Assembly: GCF_001677475.2 (NCBI RefSeq) | Contig: NZ_CP015229.1 | Origin: Escherichia coli | GTDB taxonomy: Bacteria > Pseudomonadota > Gammaproteobacteria > Enterobacterales > Enterobacteriaceae | Direction: 5' to 3' (one strand) | Length of the DNA stretch: 64,000 bases | Shown here: positions 20,242 to 20,319 of the stretch, piece after piece | Layout of the letters: each line of letters opens with the position of its first letter | Position numbering within the stretch: position 1 is the stretch's first letter | Program-made: the position numbers and the translations under genes | Notes under the pieces: generated by a model | Seen by the model: the letters and a program-made list of their open reading frames with translations, nothing else | What the model was told of the DNA's origin: nothing | Databases searched by the model: none

Positions 20242-20271
20242 AATGCGACCAATCATCGTAATGAATATGAG

Positions 20272-20294
20272 AAGTGTGATATTATAACATTTCA
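20272..20294. promoter_or_regulatory. Zur box in the divergent znuA / znuCB promoter region
   Basis: GAAGTGTGATATTATAACATTTC, an AT-rich palindrome matching the Zur operator, centred in the 78-bp znuA-znuC gap. Confidence 0.75.
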
Positions 20295-20319
20295 TGACTA
20301 CTGCAAGACTAAAATTAAC

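Follow-up and report, generated by a model that had tools for sequence, protein, structure and literature searches.

The znuA-znuCB intergenic region of an Escherichia coli chromosome carries the known Zur operator

Zur control of the divergent zinc-uptake genes znuA and znuCB has been described for Escherichia coli K-12. The bidirectional promoter of znuA/znuCB in E. coli contains one single cis element to which Zur binds, as stated by Li et al. (2009, PMC2706843), who cite Patzer and Hantke, and DNA of the znu operator exhibits a single protected region of ~30 bp (PMC4219657). A crystal structure of the (Zur2)2-DNA complex at 2.5 Å reveals the znuABC operator bound by four Zur monomers that form a dimer of dimers (PMC4219657; 4MTD/4MTE). 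Zur binds this operator with high cooperativity (Kd-app, 8.2e-18 M^2) and represses znuC 6.6-fold in vivo (PMC4219657). An extended -10 element is located within the DNA contacted by Zur (PMC4219657), and both sigma-70 and extended -10 elements overlap the Zur box (PMC4219657 Fig. 1 legend; PMC7705223).

The stretch of DNA analysed here (hereafter the window) is 64 kb of an E. coli chromosome from the pykA-lpxM-mepM-znuA/znuCB-ruvBA region. A 601-bp query taken from around the operator is present in 5,425 of 5,426 complete E. coli genomes, and is 100% identical to many of them. According to the RefSeq annotation of an identical genome, the gene order is pyk, lpxM, mepM and znuA reading leftward, and znuC, znuB and then ruvB and ruvA reading rightward. 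The locus therefore serves as an anchor that places the window in the E. coli chromosome, and both the zinc-uptake locus and its operator are intact. The zur gene itself lies outside the 64-kb window; in E. coli it sits elsewhere on the chromosome.

The three znu genes are full length. The gene znuA (19309..20241, minus strand) encodes a periplasmic zinc-binding protein of 310 aa (NCBIfam NF007091 equivalog, 525.8 bits versus a cut-off of 268), znuC (20320..21075, plus strand) encodes an ABC transporter ATPase of 251 aa (NF007090 equivalog, 535.6 bits versus a cut-off of 306), and znuB (21072..21857, plus strand), whose start overlaps the znuC stop by 4 nt, encodes a permease of 261 aa (NF007089 equivalog, 531 bits versus a cut-off of 284). 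All three matches cover the full profile length with scores of 526-536 bits, or approximately twice the curated cut-offs, and the protein lengths of 310, 251 and 261 aa are those of K-12. These genes constitute a full-length, high-affinity zinc importer of the ZnuABC type with the divergent znuA / znuCB layout, and the original prediction that the locus is intact is borne out by the lengths and equivalog scores of the genes flanking the operator.

Both divergent units named in that prediction are present, but the leftward one probably extends further than was proposed. The gene mepM (yebA), annotated at 17971..19293 on the minus strand, is located only 15 bp downstream of znuA, and its co-transcription with znuA and induction by zinc starvation have been published (PMC7705223, PMC6381278). 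Leftward transcription probably yields a znuA-mepM unit rather than one with znuA only, and hence mepM would fall under the control of the same operator.

The znuA-znuC intergenic region, which carries the bidirectional promoter and the operator, was delimited from the open reading frames and from the RefSeq annotation of a 100% identical genome. The znuA ATG occupies 20241..20239 (minus strand) and the znuC ATG begins at 20320 (plus strand), leaving a gap of exactly 78 bp (20242..20319), as originally given. An in-frame ATG located five codons further upstream (20256..20254) was considered as the znuA start and rejected because other genera do not maintain this ATG in frame. No Shine-Dalgarno sequence can be recognised upstream of either the znuA or the znuC ATG (20242-20260 and 20300-20319). 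AT content is 69% in the gap and 74% in the box described below, compared to 49% for the window. No Rfam family was found at positions 20100-20450, even at E<=1, and no tRNA genes were found in the window. Elsewhere in the window, Rfam matches above the gathering threshold correspond to SraC/RyeA with its antisense SdsR/RyeB, MicL and C0465, and these small RNA matches are located at 758-902 (both strands), 36088-36395 (minus strand) and 49654-49731 (plus strand).

The Zur box between znuA and znuC

The 18-mer GTGATATTATAACATTTC, which the original prediction had identified as an AT-rich palindrome, occurs once, at positions 20276-20293, where it constitutes the core of a 23-bp Zur box. The full 23-bp frame, GAAGTGTGATATTATAACATTTC (20271..20293), carries two mismatches to GAAATGTTATANTATAACATTTC, which is the published 23-bp gammaproteobacterial Zur consensus quoted in PMC4219657. 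The recognition site for two Zur dimers, TGTGATATTATAACATTTCA, spans positions 20275..20294 with its dyad at 20284/20285 and a central TATA at 20283-20286. This site matches the structure-based two-dimer 20-mer TGWNAYRWTATAWYRTNWCA of Gilston et al. 2014 (PMC4219657) with no mismatches, although this test is partly circular since the pattern was derived partly from the znu operator itself.

The palindrome is real and AT-rich, but it is imperfect. Only six of nine positions pair in the 18-mer, compared to nine of 11 in the 23-bp frame, and symmetry as high as that of the 23-bp frame is reached by only 13 of the 63,978 23-mers in the window. Because the arms of the box are imperfect, a repeat search of the gap reports just one 9-nt overlapping palindrome. 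Likewise, the description of the palindrome as centred between the two start codons is approximately correct: the gap has its midpoint at 20280.5, the 23-bp frame is centred on 20282, and the structural dyad falls at 20284.5. The distance from the dyad is 43.5 bp to the znuA ATG and 35.5 bp to the znuC ATG, which places the dyad 4 bp nearer to znuC than the midpoint.

When the window was searched for GAAATGTTATANTATAACATTTC while permitting up to three mismatches, a single match was recovered in 64 kb (20271-20293), versus 0.00 expected from shuffled sequences. The next-best position in the window carries six mismatches, versus two for the znu box. We also constructed a symmetric matrix from the K-12 zinT, ykgM and pliG operators, leaving out znu sequences to avoid circularity. 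With this independent matrix, the frame at 20271-20293 ranks first of 63,978 positions with a score of 23.8 bits, versus 12.9 bits for the runner-up, and a score of 23.8 bits was reached in none of 200 Markov-simulated windows. The matrix scan that had been proposed as a check therefore yields a unique and highly significant match rather than none. No other non-overlapping 23-mer at positions 20200-20322 scores more than 4.1 bits with the same matrix, and the gap carries no second full site, which agrees with the prediction of a single Zur box. The purine/pyrimidine skeleton RNNNYRNNRYNNYRNNNY was given no weight because it is non-discriminating, with 250 matches compared to 281 expected.

Sequence comparisons demonstrate that the box is deeply conserved. 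Positions 20262-20303 are unchanged in 5,032 of 5,424 E. coli genomes, and the most divergent E. coli variant that was fetched carries changes only at positions 20267, 20271 and 20274, which belong to the outer left arm and its flank, while positions 20275-20294 are intact. To look beyond this species, 80 loci were chosen via the ZnuC protein, such that their selection is independent of the box, and these range from Escherichia and Citrobacter to Photorhabdus, Morganella, Arsenophonus and Gilliamella. In every one of the 80 loci, a divergent znuA is located immediately upstream of znuC, and the best matrix match within the locus (~3.7 kb) falls in the znuA-znuC gap. The centre of the box is located 35-39 bp upstream of the znuC ATG in 69 of the 80, and the gap measures 75-79 bp in 49 of the 54 Enterobacterales loci with a clear znuA start.

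The most strongly conserved portion of the box is the core ATATTATAACAT (20279..20290), which is nearly invariant: across 50 distinct gap sequences, 11 of its 12 columns are 100% conserved and the remaining column is 96% conserved. This core resides within a larger conserved block, TGTGATATTATAACAT (20275-20290), while neighbouring columns of the gap are conserved at 30-60%. Direct observations establish which site this is, that it is unique in the window and statistically significant, that it matches K-12 and that it is deeply conserved, and we consider it nearly certain that the znuA-znuC gap holds the canonical, already known E. coli Zur operator, intact and in its usual place.

One of the 80 loci has an unusual arrangement. 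In an uncultured Enterobacterales metagenome-assembled genome (L076:1261-1306), two strong Zur boxes with scores of 23.3 and 23.9 bits are arranged in tandem, 23 bp apart. The gap that holds this double box is AT-rich and unusually long, with the boxes ~200 bp upstream of znuC, and no other clear example occurs among the 80 loci.

Conserved sequences at the znuA start codon and within znuA

A second palindrome is located at the edge of the gap. The sequence TTATGTaACATAA (20231-20243) is a perfect 13-bp palindrome (6-1-6) that spans the znuA start codon, and TGTAACAT, which is contained within it, corresponds to the left half of the zinT operator read as its reverse complement. Conservation at columns 20234-20244, which take in the 3 nt preceding the ATG, is 94-100% among 50 Enterobacterales sequences. 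The Leu-2 codon of znuA within this block is TTA in 96% of sequences, versus the 30-60% that is typical for conserved Leu codons, and the sequence context of the znuC start exhibits no comparable conservation.

These characteristics could be explained if Zur makes more than one contact with the znu control region, such that TTATGTaACATAA functions as an auxiliary Zur site comparable to the footprinted "site 2" of Yersinia pestis. In that species, two separated Zur footprints are reported (PMC2706843), only one of which has a Zur box. In addition to the conservation of columns 20234-20244 and of the Leu-2 TTA codon, which is unlike the znuC start context, the spacing of the elements is in accord with this possibility. 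Specifically, TGTAACAT occurs in 51 of the 80 loci, and in 42 of these it is exactly 49 bp from TATAACAT of the main box. The start-codon region is also the second-best non-overlapping matrix match in ~25 of the 80 loci. However, the full-site score is just 4.1 bits in E. coli, the sequence does not fit the RNNNYxxxRNNNY skeleton of a dimer site, and the published footprints for E. coli comprise one protected region of ~30 bp. Furthermore, the accessible text of PMC2706843 does not state where site 2 of Y. pestis is located. The conservation could instead reflect translation initiation, given that znuA lacks an obvious Shine-Dalgarno sequence. Such a constraint on translation initiation is a simpler alternative for the start-codon block, and an obvious Shine-Dalgarno sequence is absent from znuC as well as from znuA. 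We consider a role for TTATGTaACATAA as an auxiliary Zur site to be doubtful.

A broader proposal, to which we assign a slightly better but still small chance, is that znu genes are not controlled by the single Zur box alone. By this proposal, TTATGTaACATAA, whose conservation extends from Escherichia to Photorhabdus, would serve as an auxiliary contact for Zur, as a site for another regulator (e.g. the activator dependent on c-di-GMP that has been postulated in Erwinia), or as an operator acting on translation of the znuA mRNA. The published literature leaves open the nature of the second Zur footprint in Yersinia, and the start-codon palindrome could matter modestly in this regard.

Another conserved region resides within the znuA coding sequence. 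Codons 236-261 (~19536..19459, minus strand; ~75 nt) have unusually conserved synonymous sites across 49 species, as evident by a mean frequency of ~0.87 for the commonest third-position base, versus a mean of 0.61 for the gene as a whole. Among these codons, the rare codons AGA, AGG, TTA and ATA are kept across genera. Analysis with RNAalifold yields an imperfect 15-bp hairpin at 19508..19471 within this block. For the 46 distinct sequences aligned, 97% of cells are paired, versus ~42% when the pairing partners are shifted, and one base-pair covaries from A-T to G-C in the Pantoea, Erwinia and Tatumella loci. The folding energy of the E. coli hairpin is unexceptional (z = -1.1). Scans for sigma-70 promoters and terminators in the 3′ part of znuA, and for Rfam families above the gathering threshold across the window, produced no match on this block, and inspection by eye revealed no open reading frame in an alternative frame within it.

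The block is located 170-240 nt upstream of mepM, and it may be a candidate element for the Zur-independent expression of mepM (Murphy et al.), or may serve as a signal for mRNA processing or stability. How mepM is expressed while Zur represses PznuA is left open by the literature, and the block could matter modestly for this question. The start-codon palindrome and the internal znuA block, both of which are conserved, are the only mildly novel material at this locus.

Predicted overlapping promoters and the probable mechanism of repression

Two predicted promoter elements face each other within the Zur box. The putative extended -10 element of the znuA promoter, TGTTATAAT, is located at 20281..20289 on the minus strand, and the putative extended -10 element of the znuCB promoter, TGATATTAT, is located at 20277..20285 on the plus strand. 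The motif TGnTAnnnT is present in the znuA direction in 76 of 81 loci, in most of them at the corresponding position, and in the znuC direction in 69 of 81. From the E. coli sequence, we predict the exact -10 hexamers and approximate start sites at ~20272-20274 for znuA (minus strand) and ~20292 for znuC (plus strand). A generic scan of the gap for sigma-70 promoters and terminators found none. This result does not indicate that promoters are absent, because the scan comes up blank when, as here, neither promoter has a recognisable -35 element.

Two additional blocks in the gap are conserved. The sequence TGCAA at 20302-20306, in the 5′ leader of znuC, is 90-100% conserved and reads TTGCA on the znuA strand. 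Given its spacing of 16 bp from TAATAT (20284..20279), it may be the -35 element of PznuA. The sequence CATCGT at 20254-20259 is conserved at 82-90%.

With zinc in sufficient supply, a single pseudo-palindromic, AT-rich site (20271-20294) would be occupied cooperatively by two zinc-loaded Zur dimers on opposite faces of the DNA. Within that site, the predicted extended -10 elements of the divergent znuA(-mepM) and znuCB promoters overlap and face each other. Zur on the DNA would cover both -10 elements, and therefore RNA polymerase would be kept off the two promoters simultaneously. Once zinc becomes scarce, Zur would leave the DNA and both units would be transcribed. This occlusion mechanism is stated in PMC2706843, PMC2611976 and PMC7705223. 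Binding, stoichiometry and repression are taken from published experiments with the identical K-12 sequence, and the prediction that one pair of Zur dimers represses both units is in agreement with that work. Three overlapping constraints account for the invariant 12-bp core: Zur recognition and the two predicted -10 elements that face each other.

We also considered whether the AT-rich palindrome might be kept only as two overlapping -10 elements, with no repressor site in this strain. The face-to-face extended -10 motifs fill the invariant core, and a promoter constraint would be expected to conserve part of the sequence. However, conservation reaches past the -10 hexamers to TGTG (20275-20278) and ACAT (20287-20290), which are arm positions common to the zinT, ykgM and pliG Zur operators. 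Moreover, the sequence is identical to the DNA that was co-crystallised with Zur, and the matrix derived from unrelated Zur operators assigns it 23.8 bits. An explanation based on promoters alone is therefore very improbable.

The regulator SoxS raises znu expression, reportedly without binding the znu promoter (PMC12818246). Direct control by SoxS was rejected as a feature of this region, since the gel shifts cited there (Warner and Levy 2012) gave no SoxS binding to the znu promoter, and thus the activation is indirect.

Comparison with described operators

Operators for Fur resemble this site in that the Fur box GATAATGATAATCATTATC is likewise an AT-rich inverted repeat that is bound by two dimers of the Fur family and located over a -10 region. 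The Fur box differs in sequence from the znu site, with at least 7/19 mismatches at the znu gap, and Zur specificity resides in the central TATA (PMC4219657). The least credible reading of the znu site is that it is a Fur (iron) box, or a site shared by Fur and Zur rather than specific for Zur: every box of the Fur family is an AT-rich inverted repeat and Zur is a paralogue of Fur, but the best match to the Fur 19-mer within the gap +/-20 bp has 7/19 mismatches and is not over the box, 88 positions in the window match this 19-mer equally well or better, and the central TATA contacted by Tyr45 of Zur reportedly does not occur in the Fur box (PMC4219657). The znuA-znuC gap holds no sequence that qualifies as a Fur box.

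Three other Zur operators of E. coli, those of zinT, ykgM (L31p) and pliG, have the same 23-bp architecture, align without gaps on TTATAACA, and are bound by two Zur dimers, as at znu (PMC4219657). Each of these operators serves one promoter, whereas the znu operator serves two. Zur binding to the zinT and ykgM operators is ~150-330 times tighter, and repression is 560-980-fold, compared to 6.6-fold for znuC (PMC4219657). The left arm of the znu operator, GTGTGATA, departs from the consensus ATGTTATA.

In Y. pestis, the znuA and znuCB genes are likewise divergent and are separated by a gap of 73 bp (PMC2706843). According to the same paper, one Zur box, AGCGTAATATTATAACATT, is located over the -10 regions and both units are repressed. 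The two systems differ in that Y. pestis exhibits two separated DNase I footprints, the second of which lacks a Zur box, whereas E. coli exhibits one protected region. Therefore, a single site may not be the rule for every relative, given the second Y. pestis footprint. Yersinia loci retrieved in the current study carry the same box core.

The closest counterpart is the K-12 znuA-znuCB operator (Patzer and Hantke 2000; Outten 2001; Gilston et al. 2014, PDB 4MTD/4MTE), which has the same 78-bp gap and gene order. The two operators do not differ at any base of the box or of the start contexts on either side, and the box has the same position. Alignment with this characterised operator, the second check that had been proposed, reveals only one difference in the gap, a single-nucleotide polymorphism at position 20254 (C here, A in K-12 MG1655) that is 17 bp outside the box. 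This polymorphism belongs to the CATCGT block, which is partly conserved, and most Enterobacterales sequences (82%) have C at this position. Flanking genes differ from those of K-12 by ~2% synonymous-type divergence. No functional difference from the K-12 operator is to be expected, and the original characterisation of the site as known biology is apt, since it is a Zur operator that had already been described. The biology is that of the textbook: one operator, two Zur dimers, and two divergent promoters repressed by occlusion.
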